Origin: a virus
Strand: one strand, 5' to 3'
IMG/VR virus record: IMGVR_UViG_3300031949_000092
Coordinates: 1 to 40,442 of that record
DNA length: 40,442 nt
Position numbers and translations under genes: made by a program. Within the stretch, counting starts at the first letter, position 1, and each line of letters starts with the position of its first letter. Of this stretch, positions 1-40,442 are shown one piece after another. The notes beneath the pieces were generated by a model. That model was not told the origin of the DNA. It did not search any database and saw nothing but the letters and a program-made list of their open reading frames with translations.

Positions 1-127
1 ATTTGCCTCTGTTTCACCCACCGTCGTTACTGCCGTTCCCGAAGTAAAAGTTCCACTGCGATTTATGTCATAGACAGGCGTTACGGAATCCCCTGAAACT
101 AACGGTTCAAAAGTTATTTCTAATTTA
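1..127. repeat. 127-bp terminal direct repeat, identical to 40316-40442; a circular-assembly overlap
   Basis: Bases 1-127 are identical to 40316-40442. The repeat lies inside an ORF that reads through the junction in frame. Confidence 0.95.
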
Positions 128-1725
128 ACTGCTTGTTTTGTTTTATTGGGGTCACCGTTGTCAAAAATTCTCGAACGCCATTTAGCTGTTTCATTAGTAG
201 ATTGGTCGTCAGCCTCGACCTTATCAATTCCGTAACTTGTATTATCTCGCCAACCGATATATAAATCTGTTCCAAATGCTTTTACCGCACCAATTTTCAA
301 AGTAGTCCCCTGAGTCGTGCCTGTTGAAATTATGTAGGGAAAATTAAGCGTATTTGTCAACTCCGATGCTTGACTGCCAAACTCATAAACACCCTGCTCA
401 ACTCCAGAAGCGTCATCAGTTACCGCACCGTAGCCTATCACAAGCCTTTCCTCGTATTCGTCAATGGCCCCTGGATAGACCTCGATTATTTTAGTATTTA
501 CCAGCTTCGGCACTTTATCTATTATTTTTGTAAAGGGTTTGCTTCCCGTATAAACCGCACCCCGATTCCCGTAAACGCCCACTATCTCGTTCCTATAAGA
601 CCTTGCGGCATTAGGTGCGCCCATAGGCAAGGGTTCCGCATAGTTGTAGGCGCTTTCCAACCCGTCCCAGAAAAAGCGTTTAGACTCCTCGGCTTCGCTG
701 AAACTCTGCCCTTTCCATGCTTCAACTACTAAATATTCTTCGACCGTATAGACGCTCCTTGCCTCAAATCCTGGGTCGAGCTTTATTTTAGTTGGGTTAA
801 AAGTCCCACCCAATCTGTCAAAGAAACCCAAATACCTCTCATTCCCTACAACCCAGCCCCCGAAGAACCTTGCCATCATGTGCCAGGTCGCACTTATCAA
901 AACCCCGTAGTTGACCGTAAACTCTGCACCCTCTAAATCCGTTGCGACTTCGGTATCAACTCCGCCATCCGCAACCGTGGTCGTAACGTGGAAATGGTAA
1001 CTCTCCCCCGGCTCCGTTCTTAAAGGAGAATCAAAAGTAAAAGTATTATCCCCGACCACTACTGAGCCGTTCACAATAGTTTCGCTCCCCACGCTTCTAT
1101 TGTTTACGTCATGTAAAGTAATTGTCCAATCTCCCGAACCCACAACGTCTATGTCTATAACTATTGAAACCACAGGGTCGCCCCCAGTTGACACGTTTGA
1201 AGTTGCCGTAAAGCTCTGCCTTGCCGTTGCCGCCTCGGAAATCGAAGTGGGTGGTACATAATCGGTTGCACCAGTTCCCCCACCTGTTGTTTGTAAATCC
1301 GAAGTGTTGTGCCAACTAGTCAAAGCGTCATCAAACGCCGGAGAATTATCTAAGGGAAAATACCTGCCTATATTTGTAGCCAAAGCATAATAAAGCCCGT
1401 TATCGTGGACTACCAAACCCTCGCCTGCACCTCCGCTTACCGTTCTTAATAAACTAACCGAGTCGGCGTTGCTTATCGCATAAATCTTGCCTGCTGAGTC
1501 GTAAGCATATCGATTGGTAGACCAAGGGCTACCGTCCTCGAAAAAGTAGGGAAGTCCAGTTACAGTAGTTGAGCTTATCTTGGTAGTTTTCTTGGCTAAA
1601 GTTAAATAATTGGGGTCAGAGAATATATTGGCGCATTTTATAAACCTTGCACTATTTTCAATTCCTGATTTAGAAGAAATTGTAGAAATACCCCCAGCCC
1701 AATTATTTATTTTGAGAGAAGCCAT
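1..1725 (-). CDS. Virion tail/baseplate-like structural protein: N-terminal 575 codons of a 618-aa wrap-around CDS that continues at 40315-40184
   Basis: I checked every minus-strand triplet from 1725 to 1 and found no stop. ATG is at 1725-1723 with an in-frame TAA upstream at 1737-1735. It is absent from the ORF track because it runs off the window edge. Confidence 0.85.
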   Translation of the reverse strand, partial: MASLKINNWAGGISTISSKSGIENSARFIKCANIFSDPNYLTLAKKTTKISSTTVTGLPYFFEDGSPWSTNRYAYDSAGKIYAISNADSVSLLRTVSGGAGEGLVVHDNGLYYALATNIGRYFPLDNSPAFDDALTSWHNTSDLQTTGGGTGATDYVPPTSISEAATARQSFTATSNVSTGGDPVVSIVIDIDVVGSGDWTITLHDVNNRSVGSETIVNGSVVVGDNTFTFDSPLRTEPGESYHFHVTTTVADGGVDTEVATDLEGAEFTVNYGVLISATWHMMARFFGGWVVGNERYLGFFDRLGGTFNPTKIKLDPGFEARSVYTVEEYLVVEAWKGQSFSEAEESKRFFWDGLESAYNYAEPLPMGAPNAARSYRNEIVGVYGNRGAVYTGSKPFTKIIDKVPKLVNTKIIEVYPGAIDEYEERLVIGYGAVTDDASGVEQGVYEFGSQASELTNTLNFPYIISTGTTQGTTLKIGAVKAFGTDLYIGWRDNTSYGIDKVEADDQSTNETAKWRSRIFDNGDPNKTKQAVKLEITFEPLVSGDSVTPVYDINRSGTFTSGTAVTTVGETEAN

Positions 1726-7067: not shown

Positions 7068-7083
7068 TAACTAATTATAGCAC
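7068..7083 (-). promoter_or_regulatory. Extended -10 promoter fused to the ATG (GTGCTATAATTAGTTA-ATG)
   Basis: TGnTATAAT with 6 nt to the ATG at 7067. An identical copy is at 10049. Confidence 0.65.
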
Positions 7084-7405: not shown

Positions 7406-7657
7406 CTAGACCTCCGTTTCTTTATAAAAATCCCTCTCTTGTATGTCGTGTGATATCTTCGGATTGCCTTTCTTGTTAAACATTTCGTCAATTAAAGCCT
7501 TTCTTACGTGTTTTTCGTACATTGAGTCGACTTTGGTGATTTCCTTAGCTTTTAATACCCAAGTCTTGGGGTGTTCACCGCTCAAATCCCAATTAACCGT
7601 CACATTTTTGTTAAGTGGATTGAATACCGATACAAAATTACGCATTTTCTCTTTCAT
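7406..7657 (-). CDS. Hypothetical protein, paralogous to the N-terminal half of 8362-9000
   Basis: Shares the pattern V(F/Y)NP..(5)..V.V.WDL...(W/F).(L/V).AK with the 212-aa protein. Confidence 0.65.
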   Translation of the reverse strand: MKEKMRNFVSVFNPLNKNVTVNWDLSGEHPKTWVLKAKEITKVDSMYEKHVRKALIDEMFNKKGNPKISHDIQERDFYKETEV

Positions 7658-7808
7658 CTTCCCTTTTAATCAAAAGAAGAAGAATCTGAATGAGGTGTTT
7701 TTTGTGAATCCTGCCTTCTTTGTCCAATTGCATAAAAGATTCGTCAAATTTTTCAGGAGGAATTGTGAACCCAAGTATGTTTGAAACCTGTTGTCTAATA
7801 TTTCCCAT
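7638..7808 (-). CDS. Small hypothetical protein (56 aa, below the ORF-track cut-off)
   Basis: ATG directly follows the TAA of the HNH gene. The frame checked open, and it overlaps the next start by 20 nt. Confidence 0.5.
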   Translation of the reverse strand: MGNIRQQVSNILGFTIPPEKFDESFMQLDKEGRIHKKHLIQILLLLIKREDERENA

Positions 7809-8369
7809 TTAAAATTTACTGTTATTCATAAATAATGCTTTTTCAATTGGCCAACCCAGCATATAGATTCTCCTCCAAAAAGTTCCGTACTTTATTCCAA
7901 AATAGTCAGCCCAATTAGCTACTGTATCTCTGATACCTTTAAATTCGATATAGCGATTTCTGTTAGTATTATTGGCCTGTTCTCTTAATGTTACCCATCT
8001 ACAATTTTCCTTAAAATAACCTTTATCATTATCAATCCTGTCAATTTGTAGTTCATCTTTATAACTTAAATACATATCTTCGTAAAAACCCTTAAATGAT
8101 TGCCATTTATCACAAACATTTATCCCACGAGCGCCATATCTACTATAATTCAGTTGATTAGGATTTTGACATCTACGTTTAATTCCCTCCCATATTCTAT
8201 AAAAACGTGTGCCTTCTAAACCGAACGCTTGTCCTGTTTTGGGATTAAAAGAAACTTGTCCTCTTAAAGTTGCCCAATAACATTTATGAGAACAATATTT
8301 TCTTTTTGAAGCTCTATAAGGATATTCTTCAAACTCTTTTTTACAAACTTGACACTTAAATTTATTCAC
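7809..8369 (-). CDS. Free-standing homing-endonuclease-like protein (zinc finger plus IDRIDNDKGY..NCRWVT..EQ.NN module)
   Basis: N-terminal CxxC..CSHKCY finger. The central YRIW..IKRRC..Y..YGARGI and DRID..NCRW motifs are typical of phage HNH-type homing-nuclease families. Confidence 0.6.
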   Translation of the reverse strand: MNKFKCQVCKKEFEEYPYRASKRKYCSHKCYWATLRGQVSFNPKTGQAFGLEGTRFYRIWEGIKRRCQNPNQLNYSRYGARGINVCDKWQSFKGFYEDMYLSYKDELQIDRIDNDKGYFKENCRWVTLREQANNTNRNRYIEFKGIRDTVANWADYFGIKYGTFWRRIYMLGWPIEKALFMNNSKF

Positions 8370-9271: not shown

Positions 9272-9286
9272 ATTTAATTATAACAC
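9272..9286 (-). promoter_or_regulatory. Extended -10 promoter fused to the ATG (GTGTTATAATTAAAT-ATG)
   Basis: Identical to the copies at 2709 and 13966. The upstream TAG stop overlaps its first G. Confidence 0.65.
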
Positions 9287-9819: not shown

Positions 9820-9835
9820 AATTTAATTATATCAC
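9820..9835 (-). promoter_or_regulatory. Extended -10 promoter fused to the ATG (GTGATATAATTAAATT-ATG)
   Basis: TGnTATAAT with 6 nt to the ATG at 9819. The TAA stop of the upstream gene lies inside the TATAAT hexamer. Confidence 0.65.
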
Positions 9836-10048: not shown

Positions 10049-10064
10049 TAACTAATTATAGCAC
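10049..10064 (-). promoter_or_regulatory. Extended -10 promoter fused to the ATG (GTGCTATAATTAGTTA-ATG)
   Basis: Identical to the copy at 7068. Confidence 0.65.
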
Positions 10065-13160: not shown

Positions 13161-13186
13161 AAAAAAAATCGGCTCCGTTGAGCCGA
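13161..13186 (-). terminator. Hairpin plus U8 between the scaffold and MCP genes
   Basis: Minus strand reads TCGGCTC-AACG-GAGCCGA followed by TTTTTTTT, ending 10 nt before the MCP ATG. Confidence 0.65.
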
Positions 13187-13205
13187 CTATTTTGTCGTTA
13201 GTATT

Positions 13206-13965: not shown

Positions 13966-13980
13966 ATTTAATTATAACAC
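13966..13980 (-). promoter_or_regulatory. Extended -10 promoter fused to the ATG (GTGTTATAATTAAAT-ATG)
   Basis: Identical to the copies at 2709 and 9272. Confidence 0.65.
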
Positions 13981-14144: not shown

Positions 14145-14159
14145 GATTTATTATAACAC
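14145..14159 (-). promoter_or_regulatory. Extended -10 promoter fused to the ATG (GTGTTATAATAAATC-ATG)
   Basis: TGnTATAAT with 5 nt to the ATG at 14144. Confidence 0.6.
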
Positions 14160-16134: not shown

Positions 16135-16150
16135 TATTTAATTATAGCAC
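16135..16150 (-). promoter_or_regulatory. Extended -10 promoter fused to the ATG (GTGCTATAATTAAATA-ATG)
   Basis: TGnTATAAT with 6 nt to the portal ATG. Confidence 0.65.
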
Positions 16151-16442: not shown

Positions 16443-16458
16443 TAATTAATTGTATCAC
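16443..16458 (-). promoter_or_regulatory. Extended -10 promoter fused to the ATG (GTGATACAATTAATTA-ATG)
   Basis: TGnTACAAT with 6 nt to the ATG. The TG is supplied by the TGA stop of TerL. Confidence 0.6.
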
Positions 16459-18880: not shown

Positions 18881-19220
18881 TCCTTGCTCCTTCCGCCTTT
18901 GCTTTTATCAATCTGCCAACTTCCCTTCAAGTCCTTCCAAACATATTTTGCGTTCTTTACTTGTTCTTGAGTAACTTCTAAACCGCTTGTTGAATATTCG
19001 TCTAGATACTCCCGACTAAGCACTCCCCCCCTAAATGGCTGTAAAGCGTCTTTCCTGAATTCACGCCTTCCTTCTTTAATGCTTTCGCTAGTCCATTCTC
19101 TTTCATAGTGCGGTTTGTCTTTGTCTTGTCTGCAAACTTTACAGAAAGTTACTCCATAAACTTCGTCAATTTCTGCCAGCCGTTTATTACAATTACCACA
19201 GAGTATTTTTTTTTAATCAT
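18853..19220 (-). CDS. Zinc-ribbon protein whose ATG is separated from the body by a -1 frame change in an A9 run
   Basis: ATG-ATT-A9 at 19220-19206 (ATGA overlap with the GroEL stop). The 113-codon open frame (CGNC...CKVC) is reached only by a -1 slip or if the run is really A10. Confidence 0.5.
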
Positions 19221-20803
19221 TTCTTTTCCTCCTCAATCTCTGCGACAATGCCTTCCGCAGTAGTGAGAGATATTGCAACTGCAACTGCATTATTTAATGC
19301 TTCAACTAAAACTTGAGTGGGATCAATTATGCCTTCTTTCATCATATTGACAACATCTTCAGTGACAACATTAACTCCATATCCAAATCCTTTTTCTTTT
19401 ACTCTCAACGTCATTTCTCCACTATTTAGCCCTGCATTTCCAAGCAATTTATCAAATGGCTTTCTAATCGCATTTTTTAATATTCGATAAGCATAGTCTT
19501 CATCTTCAGTTTCGGGTTTTAAAACATCATCTATAAACAAAAGAACTGTTTCTCCCCCAGGAACAACCCCATCCTTGATTGATGAGCGAGTTGCAAGGAT
19601 TGCATCTTCACAACGCTCCCTGCGTTCTTCCGCTATAGATTCAACATGTCCCCCCACTCTAATAACATAAACTCCCCCGGTCAGCTTAGCCAGCCTTTCT
19701 CTTAATTTCTCTCTATCAAATTCTTTCTCTTCCTCTTTTAACTGGTTCTTTATTGAGTTAATCCGTTCCTTGATTTTCTTGGGGTCGCCCTTGCCTCCCC
19801 GGATAGTCGTCGCCTCTTTTGTAGAGACTACCTTGTCGGCGTGTCCTAAATCTTTTAATTCAATCTCTTTTAGTTTCATTTTGGCATCGCTTGAGATAAA
19901 CTTCGCACCCACAACCGTCGCTATATCCTGAAGTATGTTTTTGGTGTTGAAGCCCGGTGCCTTAATTGCCAGCATATTCGCCTTGCCGGTTACTTTATTA
20001 TTTATCAAGCTTACCAGTACCATGCCCTCTATGTCTTCCGCTATAACTACAAGGTTTTTCTCCTTTGCCTCGTTCATTTTTATAAACAAGGGCTGAATTT
20101 CAAAAGCGTCATCTAGCTTGTAATCGGTGACCAATATGTTTGCGTTACTTACCGAAGCGGTCATGTTGTCGGGATTTGTCACAAAGTATTCGGTCTTGTA
20201 GCCTGAGTCTATCTGCAAACCCTCCTGATGGTCTATAAAAGTATCCGGTCCCGTTATTTCCTCTGCCGTTATCACCGCGTCAACTCCTGCTTTCTCGTAA
20301 GTTTCGCCTATCAGTTTGCCCATTTGCTCATCCTCCGAACTTATCGTAGCCACTTGGATTTTCTGCTCTTTAGTCTTAACCGGAGTAGAGAGTTCCTTAA
20401 TCCTTTCAACAAGCAAGTCCCGCCCTTTCTCTAAACCGCTTCTCAAACTCATTGGATTTATACCAGCATTCGTAACTTTTAAAGCTTCTTCCATTATTGA
20501 ATAAGCTAGTAAAATCGTTAATGTAGTACCATCTCCCACACTTTCCACAGTTTCTCTCGCGGATTGCTTAATTATCTCCGCTCCTGCACTCTCAAATGGG
20601 TTTTTAGGATTAATGGTCTCACTAACTTTCAGACCATCATGAAGTAATTTTGTCCTGTGTGGTTGCCAAGTAACAATATTTCTGCCACGAATACCTAATG
20701 TAGTTGATACGGCTCGATTTACTCTACTCGCACCTTTTAGTAGTTTTTCTCTAGCTTTTATCCCGTGTATTTCTTTGCTATATTTCATGGATTTATTTCC
20801 CAT
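19217..20803 (-). CDS. groEL: GroEL-type chaperonin (Cpn60)
   Basis: Motifs VGDGTTLTILLA, AIKAPGF, LTGGVYVIRVGG and DGVVPGGE are present. It ends EIEEEKK with no GGM tail. The ATG at 20788 gives a canonical N-terminal length. Confidence 0.9.
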   Translation of the reverse strand: MGNKSMKYSKEIHGIKAREKLLKGASRVNRAVSTTLGIRGRNIVTWQPHRTKLLHDGLKVSETINPKNPFESAGAEIIKQSARETVESVGDGTTLTILLAYSIMEEALKVTNAGINPMSLRSGLEKGRDLLVERIKELSTPVKTKEQKIQVATISSEDEQMGKLIGETYEKAGVDAVITAEEITGPDTFIDHQEGLQIDSGYKTEYFVTNPDNMTASVSNANILVTDYKLDDAFEIQPLFIKMNEAKEKNLVVIAEDIEGMVLVSLINNKVTGKANMLAIKAPGFNTKNILQDIATVVGAKFISSDAKMKLKEIELKDLGHADKVVSTKEATTIRGGKGDPKKIKERINSIKNQLKEEEKEFDREKLRERLAKLTGGVYVIRVGGHVESIAEERRERCEDAILATRSSIKDGVVPGGETVLLFIDDVLKPETEDEDYAYRILKNAIRKPFDKLLGNAGLNSGEMTLRVKEKGFGYGVNVVTEDVVNMMKEGIIDPTQVLVEALNNAVAVAISLTTAEGIVAEIEEEKK

Positions 20804-21101
20804 AAACCATCAACACTTTTCCGAACGGAACTATCCTGAATTGCTCACCCTCAATCTTGAAAGTCTCGAATCCGCCCGCTGAATGAACAAGTGTTTGTCC
20901 GACTTTTACCGGGGATTCGACTATTAGCTTTCTTTCTTCGTCATAATAGGAATCACCAACTTTCAGGACTTTTGCCAACTGTGGGAATTCATCAGCGACT
21001 ATTTCTATTCCTTCGCTTGAAGTTTTATCGAGAGGTTCGACGAGTATATATCCGGCGACAGGTATGAAGTTTTCTATTTTCATCGGTATATTTTTTACCA
21101 T
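20793..21101 (-). CDS. groES: GroES-type co-chaperonin (Cpn10)
   Basis: About 100 aa, overlapping groEL by 11 nt. The pattern GYILVEP...GIEIV...AKVLKVGD...VKVGQTLV resembles Cpn10 beta-barrel spacing. Confidence 0.65.
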   Translation of the reverse strand: MVKNIPMKIENFIPVAGYILVEPLDKTSSEGIEIVADEFPQLAKVLKVGDSYYDEERKLIVESPVKVGQTLVHSAGGFETFKIEGEQFRIVPFGKVLMVYGK

Positions 21102-31032: not shown

Positions 31033-31257
31033 TTAACCTCTAAGTTTGCGGAGGTAATCCAAAACAGTATTTATAAGGTAAAGGAATATTCCTCCTACTA
31101 CCTCTCGGCTTGGTGCAAAGTCGCTCCATTCAAATCCGTCGCCTTGTATGTTTGCCTGCACAAAAATAAGGTAAAGCACTCCAAGCGGTGCTAAAAAGAT
31201 TAAAGCATTATTTAACCATTTTGACCAATCCTTTTTGTTTTCTAATAAAACCTGCAT
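31033..31257 (-). CDS. Holin candidate (two TM segments)
   Basis: 74 aa with hydrophobic segments ALIFLAPLGVLYLIFV and VVGGIFLYLINTVL and a basic C-terminus. GAGGTGA lies 6 nt upstream of the ATG. It is the last gene before the terminator. Confidence 0.6.
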   Translation of the reverse strand: MQVLLENKKDWSKWLNNALIFLAPLGVLYLIFVQANIQGDGFEWSDFAPSREVVGGIFLYLINTVLDYLRKLRG

Positions 31258-31273
31258 TGTGAATCACCTCGAT

Positions 31274-31471
31274 TCAAAGTCTTCCGACTCTCAGAATCAA
31301 CGCCAAAAGCAAACTTGTAAAACTTATCAATTCTAGTATCCATGCGGTCCTCTCCATTTTATTTTTTGGTATTTTTGTTAAATGATTTGTAAACTTGGCA
31401 ATACTAAGCCTAACTTGCCTTACCAACTTCGCAAGCTCGTCCTCTACCGGATATTTACTTTGGTTTCCCAA
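31274..31471 (-). CDS. Small tail-anchored membrane protein (lysis accessory candidate; TTG start uncertain)
   Basis: C-terminal TM segment WILELISFTSLLLALIL. It sits between the endolysin and the holin. Confidence 0.4.
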   Translation of the reverse strand: MGNQSKYPVEDELAKLVRQVRLSIAKFTNHLTKIPKNKMERTAWILELISFTSLLLALILRVGRL

Positions 31472-31479
31472 ATTAAAGC

Positions 31480-32250
31480 CTATTTCTCAAACGTCTTATA
31501 AAGTCTGAAAAATAGCTTGGATAGGGAGTTGGTTTGCGGAGGTTCGTTGGAGATTATAGATTTTTTTAATGTCTTGATTTCTTCTTCAAGTTTTCCTCTA
31601 CTCTCCTCAAGCGTTGAAACGGACTTCTCAAGATCCGTAGTTTTATCAGTAAGTGTTTTAACGCTTTCAGCAAGGTTTTTTACATCACGGGCTTGGTCAA
31701 ACAAAGTTGACTTGACTGCTCCAAATTCCATTGTTCCGAAGTTAATTCCATCTCGTTCTCCTATTTCTAACTTAGTTTTATCCGTAATCACGTTGTCGTC
31801 AATTATAACACTTTCCTCTAATTTAGGCTCAAGCCAACCAACTATATTTGTATAATCATGGGATTGTAAATGAGCCTGCCTACCATTCCAATTCTGGTCA
31901 AATCCTGTAAAAGCATTTACATCTCCTGATATGAAAATATCGATATGTCCAAATCCACCACCTACGCTTGTATTCCAAATTGGTACGTCACCTTTCTTGG
32001 GTGTGTTTGTTAAAGTGTTTGGTATTTTATTGAAAATTGTTGATAACGGGTTAGGAAAGTTCGCCCAATAGCCGTAGGCCGAATTAGAGCCGCTAGGGGG
32101 AGCCGTAATACCAAATACCCCATCTATATATAGTTTGACTATGCTAAGGCATTCTCCGCTGTAACTGGAGTCCGTGGGATAGCCTTTTGTCTTGCCCTGA
32201 TAGTCATTGATAAATCTGTCTACTTTTTCTGATAGTTCTTCTCTTGTCAT
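31480..32250 (-). CDS. CHAP-domain endolysin with a C-terminal coiled coil
   Basis: The Cys motif (SGECLSIVKLY), His motif (GFGHIDIFISG) and FDQNWNG fit the CHAP Cys-His-Asn arrangement. Confidence 0.8.
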   Translation of the reverse strand: MTREELSEKVDRFINDYQGKTKGYPTDSSYSGECLSIVKLYIDGVFGITAPPSGSNSAYGYWANFPNPLSTIFNKIPNTLTNTPKKGDVPIWNTSVGGGFGHIDIFISGDVNAFTGFDQNWNGRQAHLQSHDYTNIVGWLEPKLEESVIIDDNVITDKTKLEIGERDGINFGTMEFGAVKSTLFDQARDVKNLAESVKTLTDKTTDLEKSVSTLEESRGKLEEEIKTLKKSIISNEPPQTNSLSKLFFRLYKTFEK

Positions 32251-32567
32251 GTAAGTAAATCAATAATAGTCTTTAACTGCGAGAGCAGGAATCCTATTCC
32301 AATTGCACCTGCCAATAAGAATTTCCAAAGCCTTTTAGTCTCCTTCATCCAAACAAACATTTGGTCGTGTTCTTTAAGTCTTCTGTCCGGGTCGGAAACT
32401 GTTACCAGCTTTTCGTAGCCATTCATCCGCAGTTCAAGTGCCGTCATTCTGGTTCCAAGGCCGTCTTTTAGGTCTTTAATGTCTAAAGAAAGACGGTCAA
32501 CCTTGGCATCCACACGAATTAACACGTCGTGGTCTACCTGTCGTCTTTGGTCTATTGTCATTGACAT
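32247..32567 (-). CDS. Coiled-coil protein with a C-terminal TM anchor
   Basis: 106 aa with the TM segment FLLAGAIGIGFLLSQL, adjacent to the endolysin. Confidence 0.55.
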   Translation of the reverse strand: MSMTIDQRRQVDHDVLIRVDAKVDRLSLDIKDLKDGLGTRMTALELRMNGYEKLVTVSDPDRRLKEHDQMFVWMKETKRLWKFLLAGAIGIGFLLSQLKTIIDLLT

Positions 32568-33233: not shown

Positions 33234-34175
33234 TTATGCCTCCGCTATTGCGACTACGATATTCCAAGTAGGAGTTGCCGAATTATAAATACAACCTATA
33301 TAGTGAGTTTTATTGGCTACTGTAGTTGTGGGAGCCGTGCATCCAATGGCTGTAAATCCAGTCCAAGTTAAACCTTTAGCCACTCCTGCGTCTTTAAGTC
33401 TAATTATTAGTTTTTGCCCATTAACAGGCGTTCCTGTAACTGTAAATTCCGTAGCATTAGCAATAGCAGTTAATTGATATTGGTCGGTAACATCAACATC
33501 TATTACTGCGGTTGCGTCATCCGTAGTCGTAACCACTCTCGGAGATATTCTTTTATTGGTCATCGTAACCGTTCCACTTGCAACATGAGCCTTAACCGAT
33601 TGCTGAGAGGGTACTTTGGTAGCTGAGTCTGTCGCCATATCATCCTCATCTAACATCCAAGCCGCACCTGATAATGAGGTCATGTCGTGAAGCCCGTCGG
33701 GAGTTACTGCAAGCGTTGCTGATGTCCCCGTTGTTGTCTCCGCCGTAGTTGCTAATTCAACCTTGCCTGCCGTAGTTGAATCCGCAGCCGTCACTAAATC
33801 TGTTACATCACTGTCAACTGATACAACGCCCGTATCTGCCCTAATAACCCCTGTAAGCCCCACAGGTAAGGTCACAGTCCCTGTAAAAGTAGGGGAGGCA
33901 AGAGGAGCTGCTCCCAAAGAGGTTAAGGCTGCTGCTGCACTTGTAGCGCCTGTTCCTCCTTGTGCCACCGATAAGGCGGTAGTAAGGCCAGACAACGATG
34001 TAATATCAGAGTTGGCACCCGAAGCCGCAAGACCGCTGATTAAATTAGACCTTGTAATATTTTTGGAAGTTCCATCGGCTGAGTCTGATGTGTCACTTAC
34101 ATCAACAATATAAAGTTTATCTCCAGAAGCCACCGAAGATAAACCCGTCAGAGAAGTTAGTTTGCTATCAGCCAT
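33234..34175 (-). CDS. Tail fibre protein
   Basis: The N-terminus has SKLTSL..L...DKLYIVD and LSVAQGGTGATSAAAALTSLGAAPLASPTFTGTVT, a widespread phage fibre motif. Confidence 0.8.
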   Translation of the reverse strand: MADSKLTSLTGLSSVASGDKLYIVDVSDTSDSADGTSKNITRSNLISGLAASGANSDITSLSGLTTALSVAQGGTGATSAAAALTSLGAAPLASPTFTGTVTLPVGLTGVIRADTGVVSVDSDVTDLVTAADSTTAGKVELATTAETTTGTSATLAVTPDGLHDMTSLSGAAWMLDEDDMATDSATKVPSQQSVKAHVASGTVTMTNKRISPRVVTTTDDATAVIDVDVTDQYQLTAIANATEFTVTGTPVNGQKLIIRLKDAGVAKGLTWTGFTAIGCTAPTTTVANKTHYIGCIYNSATPTWNIVVAIAEA

Positions 34176-34830
34176 AAATAAATTCCTCCTTTCTCATTCT
34201 CGGATTCATATAACTTTTAGTTTTTTTATGGCAGTCCACGCAAAGTGTCCTACCATTGTCAATAGCAAGTCGTAGTTCTGGAAATAAAGCAAAGGGTTTA
34301 ACGTGGTCAGCGTGCAAATCGGTATTACCCCTTACTCCACATTTAGTACAACTATAATTATCTCTAGTAAAAACGGCTATCCTCCACAAGAGATATTCCG
34401 TAGAAGTTCTAATTTTATGATTTAACGGAGTAATTCCACCCTTCCAAGATGGATTTTCTTTTCCACGATAATGTGGAAGTCTTCTTGCACTCCCTAATTT
34501 TTTATGTGTATTACTCATTTTTTTTCTAGTTTGTTTAGAAGATTTTTTACCATACATCGGATTTTTGTTACCCATTTTTGTTTCACTTAAATGTTTTTTA
34601 GTAATTTCGGTGTGTTTAAAACCTAATCCATTTTTGTTCCCTATAAGCTTCTTCCTTATTTTTATACGAGTTTCTGGTTTCATTGGATGTTCTTTGCCCT
34701 TCAGTGAGATAGAGTAACATTTATGACTACAAAATTTACTGTCTTTAAAGACAGGAGAAACTAAATATTTTTCTGAACAAGTTAAGCAAATTTTTTCAAC
34801 TTTAGCATAGTTCCATGGTCTATTTATCAT
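34168..34830 (-). CDS. HNH homing endonuclease with NUMOD-like repeats
   Basis: HADHVKPF...NGRTLCVDCHKKT is the HNH core. It also has repeated GKxHP/GNKNP..K motifs and the N-terminal CxxC..CSHKCY finger shared with 7809-8369. Confidence 0.8.
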   Translation of the reverse strand: MINRPWNYAKVEKICLTCSEKYLVSPVFKDSKFCSHKCYSISLKGKEHPMKPETRIKIRKKLIGNKNGLGFKHTEITKKHLSETKMGNKNPMYGKKSSKQTRKKMSNTHKKLGSARRLPHYRGKENPSWKGGITPLNHKIRTSTEYLLWRIAVFTRDNYSCTKCGVRGNTDLHADHVKPFALFPELRLAIDNGRTLCVDCHKKTKSYMNPRMRKEEFIYG

Positions 34831-35075: not shown

Positions 35076-35423
35076 TTAACTGATTCCGAGGGATGCTCTA
35101 GCTATCTTATTCTCTGTATCCAAAGTATTTTTAAGAGCTTTTAAAGAAATTTCTGCTTCAAACGACCGCGCTGGTGGCGTCCCAGGAACTGCTGGTGCCT
35201 CACCAAGGGTGGTGGCAGCAATACTTTCTGGAGTTTGGCCTGCCATTCCACCAATTTGAGACACTTCGGTTGTAATATTAGGAGGCAAATTAGACGTTCC
35301 GGGAGCCGCCGGGCTCGTTTGCTCCAAAGCAGGTATGGACATTCCGCGCTTTTTTAAGGCCGCCGCCAAAGCTGAACCCCCACCTAATGCGTTTCCGAAG
35401 CTTCCTGAACTTTGATTCTCCAT
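35076..35423 (-). CDS. Hypothetical Gly/Ala/Pro-rich protein
   Basis: 115-aa ORF preceded by a structured leader. Confidence 0.6.
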   Translation of the reverse strand: MENQSSGSFGNALGGGSALAAALKKRGMSIPALEQTSPAAPGTSNLPPNITTEVSQIGGMAGQTPESIAATTLGEAPAVPGTPPARSFEAEISLKALKNTLDTENKIARASLGIS

Positions 35424-35478
35424 AAAAATACTCCGTCTTTTGAACGGAGTTATTTCTCCTTAATAAATTATAACACAC
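35424..35478 (-). promoter_or_regulatory. Extended -10 promoter, AAGGAG at the 5' end, terminator-like hairpin, U-run, then AUG
   Basis: Minus strand reads GTGTGTTATAAT-TTATT-AAGGAGAAATAA-CTCCGT-TCAAAAG-ACGGAG-TATTTTT-ATG. The architecture matches 39429-39481. Confidence 0.6.
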
Positions 35479-35482
35479 GAAG

Positions 35483-35653
35483 TTACTTCTTCTTGGCTAA
35501 ACTCTTGTCTTGGTATAATTCTTTTCTTACAAGGTGTTTAACAAGTTCGCTTTGCGACATTCCATTCTTTTTACAATAAGATTGCATATCCTCAAATACA
35601 TCCTGTGGAAAAGAAAAAGAAGTTATAACGTTTCTATCAATTGCTTCTGACAT
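35483..35653 (-). CDS. Ribbon-helix-helix (Arc/Mnt/CopG-type) regulator
   Basis: I chose the ATG at 35653 (MSEAIDRNVITSFSFPQDVFEDMQSYCKKNGMSQSELVKHLV...), which gives a beta-strand then two-helix RHH layout. A promoter abuts this ATG. Confidence 0.65.
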   Translation of the reverse strand: MSEAIDRNVITSFSFPQDVFEDMQSYCKKNGMSQSELVKHLVRKELYQDKSLAKKK

Positions 35654-35689
35654 TTGATTTATTATAGTTATTATAATATAATAATGCAA
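35649..35689. promoter_or_regulatory. Overlapping divergent promoters around a perfect 17-bp palindrome (operator candidate)
   Basis: Minus strand: TTGCAT (35689-35684)-N17-TATAAT (35666-35661), 7 nt to the ATG at 35653. Plus strand: TATAAT (35672-35677), 6 nt to the ATG at 35684. Palindrome TTATTATAATATAATAA at 35668-35684. Confidence 0.6.
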
Positions 35690-35998
35690 GTGAGAAAAGT
35701 AATAATTAAATTACCGACAGAAAGAGTTAATAAATTTAGACTTCAATTAACCGGAACCAAAGGAAGACGGTTCTTGCGTGCATCGTCGATTCTAAACGCT
35801 CTGTCCTACTACAAATTCAGAGAAAAAACGGCAATTACAGTAAAAGAGTACATAGATGGCTCTTATGAAAATATTAATCAAACACTAGCCTCAACAGATA
35901 AGAATTATTTGTTATTTGCTGCGGCTTGTTTTTTAGAGGATTTTTTGTCTGATGATGTAATGAATAATGTAATAAAAAGGTATGCACCAAAACCATGA
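35684..35998 (+). CDS. Hypothetical protein, first gene of the only plus-strand operon
   Basis: I chose the ATG at 35684 (the track ORF starts at a TTG at 35654). It has an ATGA overlap with the next gene. Confidence 0.6.
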   Translation: MQVRKVIIKLPTERVNKFRLQLTGTKGRRFLRASSILNALSYYKFREKTAITVKEYIDGSYENINQTLASTDKNYLLFAAACFLEDFLSDDVMNNVIKRYAPKP

Positions 35999-36270
35999 AA
36001 ACACTTAAATTCTACAAAGACATGGATAAAATGCGCGAATACAGGAAACGCAGTAAAAAGAACAACTATAAACGGGGTAATTTCATTGAAGTTCCATACA
36101 TAAGATATACCGGCGACGAGGACTGGGAACTCCTTTTCTCCGACAAAAGCGACAGGCAAATAGCGATGGAACTCAAAAGGAGCGTCGAGTCAATTCAACT
36201 GAGAAGATGGAAGATTCTATCGGGTAAAGTTAATAGCTCTTATTCATTGAAAGGAAGTGAAGCGATATGA
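35995..36270 (+). CDS. Myb/SANT-like or sigma-r4-like HTH protein
   Basis: GDEDWELLFSDKSDRQIAMELKRSVESIQLRRWKI resembles a Myb-type W..(E/D)..L...IA..L.R....(I/C)..RW repeat. It has ATGA overlaps on both sides. Confidence 0.5.
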   Translation: MKTLKFYKDMDKMREYRKRSKKNNYKRGNFIEVPYIRYTGDEDWELLFSDKSDRQIAMELKRSVESIQLRRWKILSGKVNSSYSLKGSEAI

Positions 36271-36461
36271 TTTGGTTTATTATAATTTTACTATTACTAA
36301 TAGGATGGTTATTTGGTCCGAATATTGACCAATCTGAAAGAAATCGCAGAAACAAATTGGACGAAAGGATAAAAAAAAGATTCACGGATAAAGATGCACT
36401 AAAAAGTTATGAAGAAATGCAAAAGGAAATTAATGAGCAATCATCCTGGCCGTTTTTGTAA
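36267..36461 (+). CDS. Small N-terminally anchored membrane protein
   Basis: TM segment IWFIIILLLLIGWLF followed by a charged tail. Its 3' end overlaps the convergent virion gene by 32 nt. Confidence 0.55.
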   Translation: MIWFIIILLLLIGWLFGPNIDQSERNRRNKLDERIKKRFTDKDALKSYEEMQKEINEQSSWPFL

Positions 36462-38535: not shown

Positions 38536-39428
38536 CCATCGTCTCCTAAAGTTCCCAACTTCCCTTTCTTTTCGGTTCTTAATAAATTCCCTGCAAAGTC
38601 AAAAATACCAATTCTATCTCCTAAATCTACAAAATCTATATTGCTAGCGGTTTGCTCAAGCTGTGCCAGTTGCGTGGCTCTGTTTAACTGCGCTACATCT
38701 AATGTGGTTTGTCTTGATAAATTTGCCAATTCTCTATCTAAATCCGAACTAATTTGCTGTTTGAACAAGTCAAACTCCTGCCCGATGTTCTGACCCAACA
38801 TTTGTGCTTCCAAACCTAGTCCAGTAAAAGCCGCTTGTGTTCTTGAACCGAATTCACTTAAAAGGTTCTGAAGACCCGCTCCGCTTGCTTCCAGTCCTCT
38901 TGTTGCCGACTCTATCGCGGGTTGCAGTCCCTTAATCTCTGCCGCTGTCCTTCCTGCAAGCTGTCCTGCCGTTACTCCTTGTCCCGATAACGCCTGCTGT
39001 ACGGCTTGTGGCAAGTCGCGGATAGTACCCGATATTCCCCTTGCTGCCGTACCTGCCGCCCCGAAAGTCTGAAAAGCCTCCGGAATGCCCATGGCTTGTC
39101 TAACGGCCTCCAGTTCTTCAGGTACTTTCTGGAGCCTTCCGGTAAATTCTCCTAGCCTTCCTCTTTCTTCCTCTTGAAAGGTTGCCGCTTTTTGTTCCTC
39201 CGGTGAAGTTCCCGGTTGGAAAAGTCTGGCTATGTTTTGCCCCTCCGTGCTTCCCGTAAAGCTCGTACCAGGTACGTCTTGAAGCTGAAAGGTTTGACCT
39301 GCCGTTAATGGAGCGTTTGTGGGCAAGCCCGTAAATTGACCATAGACTGAAGTCGTGCCGCCGTACTGCTTCATTAAGTCATCCAATGTCTTACCGGCTA
39401 AATTTTCGGGAACTTTATAATAGGCCAT
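38529..39428 (-). CDS. Internal virion protein candidate
   Basis: 299 aa rich in Gly, Gln, Ala and Thr with low complexity. It overlaps the downstream gene by 7 nt. Confidence 0.55.
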   Translation of the reverse strand: MAYYKVPENLAGKTLDDLMKQYGGTTSVYGQFTGLPTNAPLTAGQTFQLQDVPGTSFTGSTEGQNIARLFQPGTSPEEQKAATFQEEERGRLGEFTGRLQKVPEELEAVRQAMGIPEAFQTFGAAGTAARGISGTIRDLPQAVQQALSGQGVTAGQLAGRTAAEIKGLQPAIESATRGLEASGAGLQNLLSEFGSRTQAAFTGLGLEAQMLGQNIGQEFDLFKQQISSDLDRELANLSRQTTLDVAQLNRATQLAQLEQTASNIDFVDLGDRIGIFDFAGNLLRTEKKGKLGTLGDDGW

Positions 39429-39481
39429 TAAAAAATAAAACCCCAGCGGTTTGCTGGAGTAGTTTCTCCTTATTTATTATA
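39429..39481 (-). promoter_or_regulatory. TATAAT, AAGGAG at the 5' end, terminator-like hairpin, U-run, then AUG (second copy of this architecture)
   Basis: Minus strand reads TATAAT-AAAT-AAGGAGAAACTA-CTCCAGC-AAACC-GCTGGGG-TTTTATTTTTTA-ATG. Confidence 0.55.
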
Positions 39482-39486
39482 CTACA

Positions 39487-40187: not shown

Positions 40188-40442
40188 TCCTCTTCCCCTT
40201 CATCCGTTAATTCCTCATAAATGAGATTGACTCCTGTTATTCGAGGAAACGTAACTGCTGAGCTTAAAAAATCGAAACCGAATTCAATCTCCTTGATTGG
40301 CATATTTATGTAGAGATTTGCCTCTGTTTCACCCACCGTCGTTACTGCCGTTCCCGAAGTAAAAGTTCCACTGCGATTTATGTCATAGACAGGCGTTACG
40401 GAATCCCCTGAAACTAACGGTTCAAAAGTTATTTCTAATTTA
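40184..40442 (-). CDS. C-terminal end of the 618-aa wrap-around structural protein (40316-40442 duplicates 1-127)
   Basis: The frame checked open from 40315 down to the TGA at 40186-40184. The protein ends ...LIYEELTDEGEEE. Confidence 0.85.
   Translation of the reverse strand, partial: KLEITFEPLVSGDSVTPVYDINRSGTFTSGTAVTTVGETEANLYINMPIKEIEFGFDFLSSAVTFPRITGVNLIYEELTDEGEEE
40316..40442. repeat. Second copy of the 127-bp terminal overlap
   Basis: Identical to bases 1-127. Confidence 0.95.

Follow-up and report, generated by a model that had tools for sequence, protein, structure and literature searches.

P22-like phages carry, between ejection gene 16 and tailspike gene 9, a hyper-variable and independently expressed block of genes named 'ant moron', which was found with ten content types in sixteen genomes and comprises immI (mnt, arc, sar, ant), the membrane exclusion gene sieA, and hkcC, with ribbon-helix-helix (RHH) repressors among its products (PMC2629481). 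According to the Hendrix/Juhala definition quoted in the same study, a moron is an independently expressed insertion in a phage operon (PMC2629481). Here, we describe a locus of comparable position in the virus record IMGVR_UViG_3300031949_000092 of IMG/VR, whose 40,442 nucleotides (nt) were analyzed in full and are referred to as the window. The locus is an island of four genes; one of them encodes an RHH protein of 56 amino acids (aa) and the other three, which we name A, B, and C, form an operon on the opposite strand (Table 1). With moderate confidence, we interpret the island as a moron-type accessory cassette, which occupies a recombination-tolerant slot of the late region and whose RHH protein represses both of two overlapping promoters.

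The four open reading frames (ORFs) were found exactly where an earlier note on this DNA had placed them, and the arrangement which that note had described was confirmed: both the A-B and the B-C junction are ATGA overlaps, indicating translational coupling, and the RHH gene is divergent from the coupled three-gene plus-strand operon within the late region. Likewise, codon usage and AT skew identify A-B-C as the sole plus-strand coding cluster. The codon-usage scores are 0.16 (A), 0.06 (B), 0.14 (C), and 0.18 (RHH) bits/codon, the antisense ORFs have no positive score, and the AT skew changes its sign in the island region only. A can be counted as a validated gene, because about 16 homologues exist. 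The scores of 0.06-0.18 bits/codon in the island compare to 0.23-0.58 bits/codon for the core genes, and the GC content is 0.333 in the island vs. 0.438 in the flanking 701-aa gene and 0.489 in the flanking 115-aa gene. Two other plus-strand ORFs of the window were rejected as genes. The first, at 7443-7784 (+, 113 aa), scored -0.29 bits/codon; the minus-strand ORFs of 83 and 56 aa underneath score positive and were taken as the real genes at this position. The second, a long ORF at 370-732, scored -0.41 bits/codon.

The island was compared with 27 metagenomic loci, designated by L-numbers; in L010-12 and L017-18, the large proteins are only positional analogues of the 701-aa protein. The closest relative, represented by L004-6, shares with the window the 701-aa protein (63% identity), the 299-aa protein (50%), the 115-aa protein (43%), and the N-terminus of the fibre protein (52%). 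In L004-6, the slot has the same position and orientation and contains A (33%), an 82-aa transmembrane (TM) protein, and a 31-aa hydrophobic peptide; RHH, B, and the HNH endonuclease gene that is found near the island are lacking. In L019-21, the opposite-strand cluster consists of a flipped homologue of the 115-aa gene, a Zn-ribbon peptide, a TM protein, B (71%), and a further TM protein, and L019 possesses neither A nor RHH. The inverted homologue (L019 5324-5641, +) heads the cluster that holds B; the boundary of the inversion thus shifts between lineages. The slot of L003 is filled with three unrelated membrane or cysteine-rich proteins. Among the more distant loci, L010-12 contain an A-led opposite-strand cassette of A, RtcB, tRNA-Pro(TGG), a 106-aa protein, and two TM proteins, and L017-18 contain A and a 50-aa TM peptide. 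All versions of the slot terminate with one or more small TM or secreted proteins, which are mutually non-homologous.

Cargo therefore differs among the window, L004-6, L019, and L003, where the 299-aa, 701-aa, 115-aa, 69-aa, and fibre proteins are conserved. Judged from these loci, the slot is conserved, often with A as its lead gene, and both cargo and regulators turn over. The conserved slot with its variable content, the lower GC content, and the weaker codon adaptation fit the moron concept. With regard to the features of a moron, content differs among syntenic relatives, composition deviates, lysis genes are located elsewhere, and promoter-like elements with leaderless geometry are present; a plus-strand terminator is missing, and C overlaps the 3' end of the 701-aa gene. 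The island lies upstream of the fibre genes and after large uncharacterised genes of the virion module, and this position parallels that of the P22 'ant moron'.

The earlier note had named, as a finding that would speak against it, the lack of a conserved pairing in related phages, and this is the situation for RHH: tblastn detected no homologue in 25 loci, the genes called on the 1-kb contigs L026 and L027 show nothing RHH-like, and in a word-indexed search of 5.8 billion protein sequences RHH retrieved itself only. The RHH gene and B appear to be additions specific to this phage; B is also carried in the same slot by a more distant relative. The A-B pairing was also seen in this window alone; in most relatives, A is without a helix-turn-helix (HTH) partner.

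The assignment of the 56-aa protein to the RHH class, which had been proposed before, is backed by profile matches and was accepted on sequence grounds. RepB-RCR_reg (PF10723) was the sole Pfam model above threshold (24 bits at a cutoff of 21, E-value 3.7e-5), and RHH_5 (6.9e-5), RHH_1, and RHH_4 were all sub-threshold. The Arc-like repressor family of PHROG matched with an E-value of 1.2e-4, matches to the CopG-like repressors of PHROG and to the NCBIfam models for RepA-regulatory, aCcr1, and NikR proteins were weak, and an alignment with NikR from the PDB (E-value 0.07) spans the RHH domain of NikR, that is, the β-strand and both helices. Although these scores are marginal, the protein is, as far as profiles can tell, a ribbon-helix-helix DNA-binding protein.

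The control region between RHH and A is compact. The two start codons (35653 and 35684) are 30 bp apart, and neither is preceded by a Shine-Dalgarno (SD) sequence. The RHH gene has a leaderless-type start, with a TATAAT box and 7 nt in front of its ATG; the promoter predicted for A has a similar geometry (Table 1). The two plus-strand sites predicted here are the best sigma-70-like ones of the region. One of the alternative -10 boxes of A, TATAAT at 35677-35682, is located 7 nt ahead of a GTG codon (35690), an alternative start which corresponds to the position of Met1 in the alignment with the closest homologue of A. The predicted -10 boxes of RHH and A are arranged back-to-back at a distance of 5 bp, and each -35 element is situated within the opening codons of the gene on the other side. 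If the promoters are real, RNA polymerase can occupy only one of them at a time, because their cores overlap fully.

Between the two start codons, an imperfect inverted repeat (35640-35666 and 35677-35703) is centred, which corroborates the palindrome mentioned in the earlier note. Its arms are 27 nt long with 20 of 27 positions (74%) complementary, and it encloses both -10 boxes. No second dyad of this kind with a loop of 10 nt exists in the window, and equal quality was reached in 5 of 1000 local Markov shuffles. The region 35640..35703 suggests itself as the candidate operator of RHH. Three copies of TTATTATA, 9 bp apart, lie within the dyad. Their role as operator half-sites was kept as a possibility only, as the 8-mer consists of a -10 box followed by AA.

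The leaderless geometry is not restricted to the island. TATAAT-N4-8-ATG occurs 11 times on the minus strand, each time at the start of an ORF of at least 50 aa, the RHH gene included. On the plus strand, a single occurrence, that of A, begins an ORF of this minimum length. An extended -10 motif of the late genes, GTGNTATAATTA, was observed 11 times vs. 1.06 times expected and on the minus strand only (Table 1). Nine of its copies, which make up nine of the minus-strand TATAAT-N4-8-ATG sites, are located 4-6 nt upstream of an ATG without SD sequence. Given this geometry, many late genes seem to be expressed as leaderless mRNAs from extended -10 promoters, which implies that the host translates 5'-terminal AUGs efficiently. 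Only two sites of the TATAAT-N4-8-ATG geometry, the promoters of RHH and A, lack a TG beside the -10 box; both carry -35-like hexamers, as do the promoter-like sites of the early region. We infer from the missing TGn extension and the -35-like hexamers that these two promoters belong to a different, probably earlier class.

Table 1. Coordinates of the island genes, their predicted control elements, the island boundaries, and the late extended -10 motif
Feature	Position in the window	Strand	Details
RHH gene	35653..35483	-	56 aa
Gene A	35684-35998	+	104 aa
Gene B	35995-36270	+	91 aa
Gene C	36267-36461	+	64 aa
Predicted RHH promoter	-35 at 35689..35684, -10 at 35666..35661	-	TTGCAT, 17 nt, TATAAT, 7 nt, ATG
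Predicted A promoter	-10 at 35672-35677	+	TATAAT, 6 nt, ATG
Alternative A -10 boxes	35669-35674; 35677-35682	+	TATTAT; TATAAT
Candidate A -35-like element	35647-35652 or 35654-35659	+	CTGACA or TTGATT
Composite boundary element	35423..35476	-	downstream of the RHH stop codon
Convergent overlap of the 3' ends of C (+) and the 701-aa gene (-)	36430..36461		32 nt
Copies of GTGNTATAATTA	2712-2723, 7072-7083, 9275-9286, 9824-9835, 10053-10064, 13969-13980	-	
Copies of GTGNTATAATTA, continued	14148-14159, 16139-16150, 16447-16458, 31800-31811, 35465-35476	-	

On its RHH side, the island is delimited by a composite boundary element (Table 1), in which a -10 box of the extended late type, GTGTTATAAT (35476..35467), AAGGAGAAA, a hairpin (35450..35430) with a fold z-score of -3.8, and a U-run precede the ATG of the 115-aa gene (35423). 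The element may restart or gate late transcription of the minus strand, and it could terminate the RHH transcript. A function of the hairpin as dedicated RHH terminator was considered and is weakened by the recurrence of the same leader in front of the 299-aa gene, where a near-identical copy occupies 39428-39486 (-). Both copies follow one plan: a TATAAT box with TG 1-3 nt upstream, 5 nt, AAGGAGAAA, a hairpin of the form ACTCC...GGRGT, a U-run, and the ATG. Such a leader resembles an intrinsic terminator or attenuator placed close to the promoter, for which PR'-tR' of phage lambda offers a comparison, or it could be a bridge of SD sequence, hairpin, and AUG. The capsid gene is likewise preceded by a hairpin and a U-run (13188..13167). 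In the closest relative, the 118-aa homologue of the 115-aa gene is preceded by TGTTATAAT and 6 nt, and no hairpin is present.

At the other end of the island, C and the 701-aa gene converge, and neither a terminator-like site nor a stable fold was found at their overlap. Corresponding overlaps exist in the relatives (about 62 nt in L010, 33 in L019, 7 in L017, and 4 in L003), where the terminal TM proteins are unrelated. It had been argued that late transcription must cross the island. This has to be modified: a copy of the late promoter (35476..35465) is located just upstream of the 115-aa gene, so that late polymerases need not cross the island to reach the downstream genes. Read-through antisense to the operon is nevertheless likely, since no terminator was found after the 701-aa gene. 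If a 5'-terminal AUG is needed, translation of RHH from such read-through RNA should be poor.

These findings can be combined into a model, in which the island would be the junction between two late transcription units of the minus strand. A, B, and C would be transcribed as a leaderless or near-leaderless tricistronic mRNA; as their promoter has the -35/-10 form without TGn, expression would probably be early and independent of late control. The promoter core of the RHH gene would overlap that of the cassette completely, and RHH dimers bound to the dyad would shut both promoters, which would result in autoregulation and in temporal or dosage control of the cassette. Repression by RHH would also relieve the head-on encounter with polymerases that transcribe the convergent 701-aa gene towards the cassette. 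The products of the cassette are probably directed at the host or the cell envelope and not at the virion; C and its analogues would be candidates for superinfection-exclusion or envelope effectors, and B may be a second, Aca-like regulator or may be directed towards the host.

Several observations weigh against this interpretation. The promoters were all predicted from consensus-type matches in DNA that is rich in AT, and a generic sigma-70 scan gave no enrichment over shuffled sequences. The TTATTATA repeats resemble -10 boxes and might be alternative promoters and not half-sites. For the cassette, no plus-strand terminator was found, and the classical definition of a moron asks for a terminator of its own. 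The codon-usage score of B is weak, and no RHH homologue was detected that would allow its pairing with the cassette to be compared. In addition, A has the same direction as the large late genes on both of its sides in L014-16 and is placed with early or regulatory genes in L007-9, L013, and L025, so that it may be an ordinary gene of these phages and not accessory cargo. Finally, the idea about the host outlined below is based on one distant capsid match to a single TM7 phage.

The presence of A among the early genes of other phages is at the same time an argument for a rival explanation, namely an anti-defence operon of the acr-aca type, with A as a counter-defence effector that a strong promoter would bring to immediate expression, B as Aca-like HTH autorepressor, and RHH as an extra, phage-specific brake. 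We regard this as unlikely, but it is suggested by the content of the A-led cassette in L010-12, in which RtcB is directly followed by tRNA-Pro(TGG). In L010 (6001-8369, +), the RNA ligase RtcB comprises 382 aa and the two small proteins have several TM segments; the arrangement looks like a module for tRNA repair and replacement. RtcB and tRNAs of phages have been regarded as means to repair cleaved tRNAs or to replace them (PMC7824862). It is also in line with this explanation that B belongs to a family of small HTH proteins encoded beside varied small genes, and that A of L004 has a near-consensus promoter (TTGACA-18-TATAAT, 6 nt, ATG). On the other hand, A, B, and C match no model of Pfam, NCBIfam, or PADLOC, the last of which models defence and not anti-defence proteins, and A has no fold match. 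Moreover, A has no HTH partner in most relatives, its pairing with B occurs only in this window, and the most constant cargo of the slot are membrane proteins, which is atypical of acr loci. The anti-defence comparison drawn in the earlier note nonetheless agrees better with the data than immI, because B is of HTH type and a distant A-led cassette carries RtcB and tRNA-Pro; a match to a known family is missing here as well. PADLOC and NCBIfam gave nothing informative for the cargo of the relatives, either.

Protein A is, as the relatives suggest, the conserved lead protein of the cassette. Its family comprises about 16 proteins of 99-134 aa with the motif YLL(Y/F)xxACFLE(D)(Y/F)L, which is invariant or nearly so; LACFL is invariant. 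The N-terminal half of A is basic (isoelectric point, pI, 11.4) and the C-terminal half is acidic (pI 4.3). AlphaFold2 (AF2), supplied with the family alignment, generated a model with a predicted local distance difference test (pLDDT) score of 94.8 and the topology β-β-β-α-β-β-α-α. Foldseek comparisons of this model with the PDB and BFVD revealed nothing below an E-value of 0.001, and no match of A was found in Pfam, PHROG, NCBIfam, PADLOC, or a profile search of the PDB. According to the model, A thus represents a new family of small phage proteins with a confidently predicted but unmatched fold. The N-terminus KVIIKLPTERV had looked RHH-like; an Arc-like RHH fold of A was ruled out by the AF2 topology and by the absence of an RHH profile or fold match. 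Searching one genome per bacterial and archaeal species for A gave no hit and consequently no prophage or host clue. The closest homologue of A on a short contig (L026) is ATGA-coupled to a secreted cysteine-rich protein. For L010, the called homologue has 134 aa, and its probable start is an internal GTG located 9 nt after a TATACT box. The homologue in L017 (586-708) does not start leaderless: about 95 nt precede it, in which two inverted repeats are nested (AAGTCTTGCGA/TCGCAAGACTT and TAGATAAGG/CCTTATCTA), and which may be a structured regulatory leader. Within gene A of the window, an inverted repeat (35878-35935) covers the codons of the conserved LACFL motif region. It is the only other locus of the window having a 27-nt-arm repeat with at least 20 of 27 matches and a loop of 0-20 nt.

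The family of B surfaced only in an exhaustive HMMER search, which identified 85 cluster representatives, most of them being complete proteins with 77-100 aa; the word-indexed search with B returned B itself only. The consensus of the family consists of a basic N-terminus, YRNRxRKxNY, followed by (W/Y)TxxED...TDRELAxxLxRSVxSIQxxRxRL. Neither B nor 40 members of the family have a direct match in Pfam. However, multi-repeat homologues of B residues 36-80 match Myb_DNA-binding (7e-7) and Sigma70_r4_2 (1e-12), which means that the Myb/SANT-like character ascribed to B before could be retained with the help of its relatives and not by a direct match. In the PDB, B-Myb was found with an E-value of 0.2, c-Myb also weakly, and a designed HTH repeat with an E-value of 0.006. 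The single-sequence AF2 model of B (pLDDT 45) was unusable. It is reasonable to assume that B combines a basic N-terminal segment with an HTH resembling Myb/SANT or region 4 of sigma-70.

Hydropathy predicts one N-terminal TM segment for C (residues 1-22), in agreement with its earlier designation as membrane protein. The segment is followed by a charged helical tail, and there are weak matches to an ATP-synthase-b-like topology. This architecture has to be considered with respect to two further explanations. P22 SieA and T4 Imm are examples of proteins that block the entry of competing phage DNA, and C and its analogues might act in the same way in a superinfection-exclusion or envelope-modifying cassette, in which A and B are accessory or regulatory. 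This explanation, which is quite unlikely in our opinion, would account for the non-homologous small TM or secreted proteins at the end of all slot versions and for the coupling of the closest A homologue on a short contig to a secreted cysteine-rich protein; that lysis functions are encoded elsewhere in the genome is compatible with it. Furthermore, sieA of P22 is part of the positionally analogous ant moron (PMC2629481). However, C has only 64 aa, shows no homology to known superinfection-exclusion (Sie) proteins, and has no informative match in Pfam, PHROG, or NCBIfam. Its likeness to a 31-aa peptide of L002 is confined to the hydrophobic segment, BLAST detected no similarity to the 82-aa TM protein of the relative, and nothing was found that would point to a temperate phage.

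In the second explanation, the island would be a lysis-timing module, in which C acts, under the control of RHH, as a holin, an antiholin, or a spanin-like protein. The N-terminal TM segment and the charged helix of C, together with a weak PHROG match to Rz-like spanins (E-value 0.085), are the arguments for it; the E-value is not significant, and a complete-looking lysis block, consisting of an XhlA-like 106-aa protein, a CHAP-type endolysin, and two small TM proteins, is located at 31033-32567. A lysis module is thus highly improbable, and a lysis role of C was rejected, as C is not needed as a holin. For the cargo of the slot in general, RtcB and the tRNA of the distant phages suggest counter-defence and the small membrane proteins suggest exclusion or an effect on the envelope; for A-B-C of this window, the findings are compatible with either.

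The genome around the cassette is a circularly permuted copy of a metagenomic phage contig of about 40.4 kb (ENA ERZ27256953 k141_3196476). The ends of the window (1-275 and 40188-40442) cut a 618-aa gene that is whole on the permuted contig, from which a circular or terminally redundant genome with a size of about 40.4 kb can be deduced. Among the early genes of the minus strand are those for NinG, YopX, an HTH_17 protein, and a Cpn10/GroEL pair at 19217-21101 (-), in which a Cpn10/GroES-like protein (102 aa) adjoins a GroEL chaperonin (528 aa). These are followed on the same strand by the small and the large terminase, a 655-aa gene at the portal position, the major capsid protein, and large uncharacterised proteins of 845, 599, 321, 618, 175, 299, and 701 aa, in this order, before the island is reached. 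Beyond it, three minus-strand genes, encoding a 115-aa protein, a 69-aa protein, and an HNH-NUMOD3 endonuclease, separate the island from the genes of the fibre-like proteins (313 and 219 aa), which are followed by the lysis genes. The fibre label given previously is supported for the 313-aa protein by a PHROG match. For the neighbouring 701-aa protein, formerly labelled an internal virion protein, no match was found in Pfam, PHROGs, NCBIfam, or GenBank phages, nor were relatives found in IMG/VR. The window contains two HNH endonuclease genes, at 34168-34830 (-) and 7809-8369 (-). The former, with NUMOD3, has the 69-aa gene and the fibre gene as its neighbours and is missing in the closest relative; this gene beside the island is likely a homing insertion. 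Rfam identified no family at the gathering threshold in the entire window.

Close relatives are missing among the GenBank phages, where only a 96-nt match to the fibre was detected and tblastn with A, B, and the 701-aa protein gave nothing; the families A and B are absent from 50,697 GenBank phage records. The capsid protein has two distant matches among these phages, an uncultured Caudoviricetes (32%) and the TM7 phage DolZOral124_53_65 (28.5%), whose circular genome of 38.8 kb also encodes a Cpn60 chaperonin. A host similar to Patescibacteria/Saccharibacteria is a plausible guess from the match to the TM7 phage. The CHAP endolysin is consistent with a host having exposed peptidoglycan. A literature search on Saccharibacteria phages yielded nothing relevant.

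On this basis, a more far-reaching scenario can be drawn, which we consider doubtful as a whole. In this scenario, a clade of uncultured phages, possibly infecting Patescibacteria of the Candidate Phyla Radiation (CPR), would keep a counter-oriented cargo bay at the end of its virion module. A, with its new fold, would lead the bay; RtcB and tRNA, membrane exclusion proteins, and Myb-like regulators would be swapped behind it; and, in this phage, RHH would gate two divergent, leaderless promoters with full overlap. The result would be a minimal bidirectional switch, in which a gene could be translated only from the transcripts of its own promoter, due to their 5'-terminal AUG.

If our preferred reading of the island as a moron-type cassette is true, the slot is a place to seek genes for host interaction, such as anti-defence, superinfection exclusion, or RNA repair, in a group of phages which has no cultured representative and almost no annotated genes. 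The families of A (about 16 proteins) and B (85 cluster representatives) are widespread in metagenomes and uncharacterised. The 37-bp control region would be a compact, testable case, with two mutually exclusive predicted leaderless promoters and one small repressor. In addition, the phage-wide rule TATAAT-N5-7-ATG leads to a predicted transcription map which is unusually clean for a phage without culture and would constrain the biology of translation initiation in its host.

Among the known systems, repressors of the CopG/RepB-regulator, Arc/Mnt, and NikR N-terminal type resemble the RHH protein in that the profile matches cover the β-strand and both helices. An autoregulator of this type is expected beside a dyad, and the RHH gene adjoins a dyad-symmetric site which overlaps the promoters. 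In contrast to the established repressors, the scores of RHH are marginal, its operator is a predicted one, and no close homologue was found. With acr-aca loci, the island shares small genes of undescribed role behind a strong-looking promoter and, in B, a small HTH protein which is widespread and occurs in varied contexts; counter-defence-type cargo, RtcB and a tRNA, is carried by the cassette of a more distant phage. It differs from them by the lack of any known-family match, by the absence of B from most A-led cassettes, and by the second, divergent regulator RHH.

The P22 immI region, to which the island had been likened in the earlier note, requires a more detailed comparison. In a true immI switch, a Mnt-like RHH protein would repress a divergent antirepressor operon and control a lysogeny decision. 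In favour of such a switch, the RHH gene of the island diverges from an operon which is embedded in the late region immediately before the fibre genes. In P22, the promoters Pant and Pmnt overlap, as do the promoters predicted here. However, Pfam, PHROG, and NCBIfam assigned none of A, B, and C to Ant, KilAC, Bro, or another antirepressor family, and the first gene, A, is not an Arc-like RHH gene. Among the ORFs scanned and the precomputed Pfam calls, with many small ORFs lying outside the scan, neither an integrase nor a CI-type repressor was detected, and no evidence for a temperate lifestyle was found. Furthermore, RHH is present in none of the relatives, and the orientation is inverted: here the operon, and not the regulator, opposes late transcription. 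The divergent layout noted earlier is valid, but the island is no immI homologue, since neither an Arc-like first gene nor Ant was found, and we judge such a switch to be very improbable.

With respect to the ant moron as a whole, the differences are of the same kind. No protein is homologous, Ant and an Arc-like first gene are absent, and polarity is reversed, the RHH gene running with and the operon against late transcription. Moreover, the RHH gene was found in one genome only, the promoters are apparently leaderless, and signs of a temperate phage were not seen. What is new are the two uncharacterised protein families and the promoter architecture; the type of cassette is already known. 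As in P22, a hyper-variable and, in our case, presumably non-morphogenetic block is located in the late region just upstream of the receptor-binding genes for fibre or tailspike, its content varies among syntenic relatives and includes genes for membrane proteins, and an RHH repressor gene is divergent from a small operon with overlapping promoters, which are predicted ones in our case. Both blocks could modulate the read-through into the downstream late genes.

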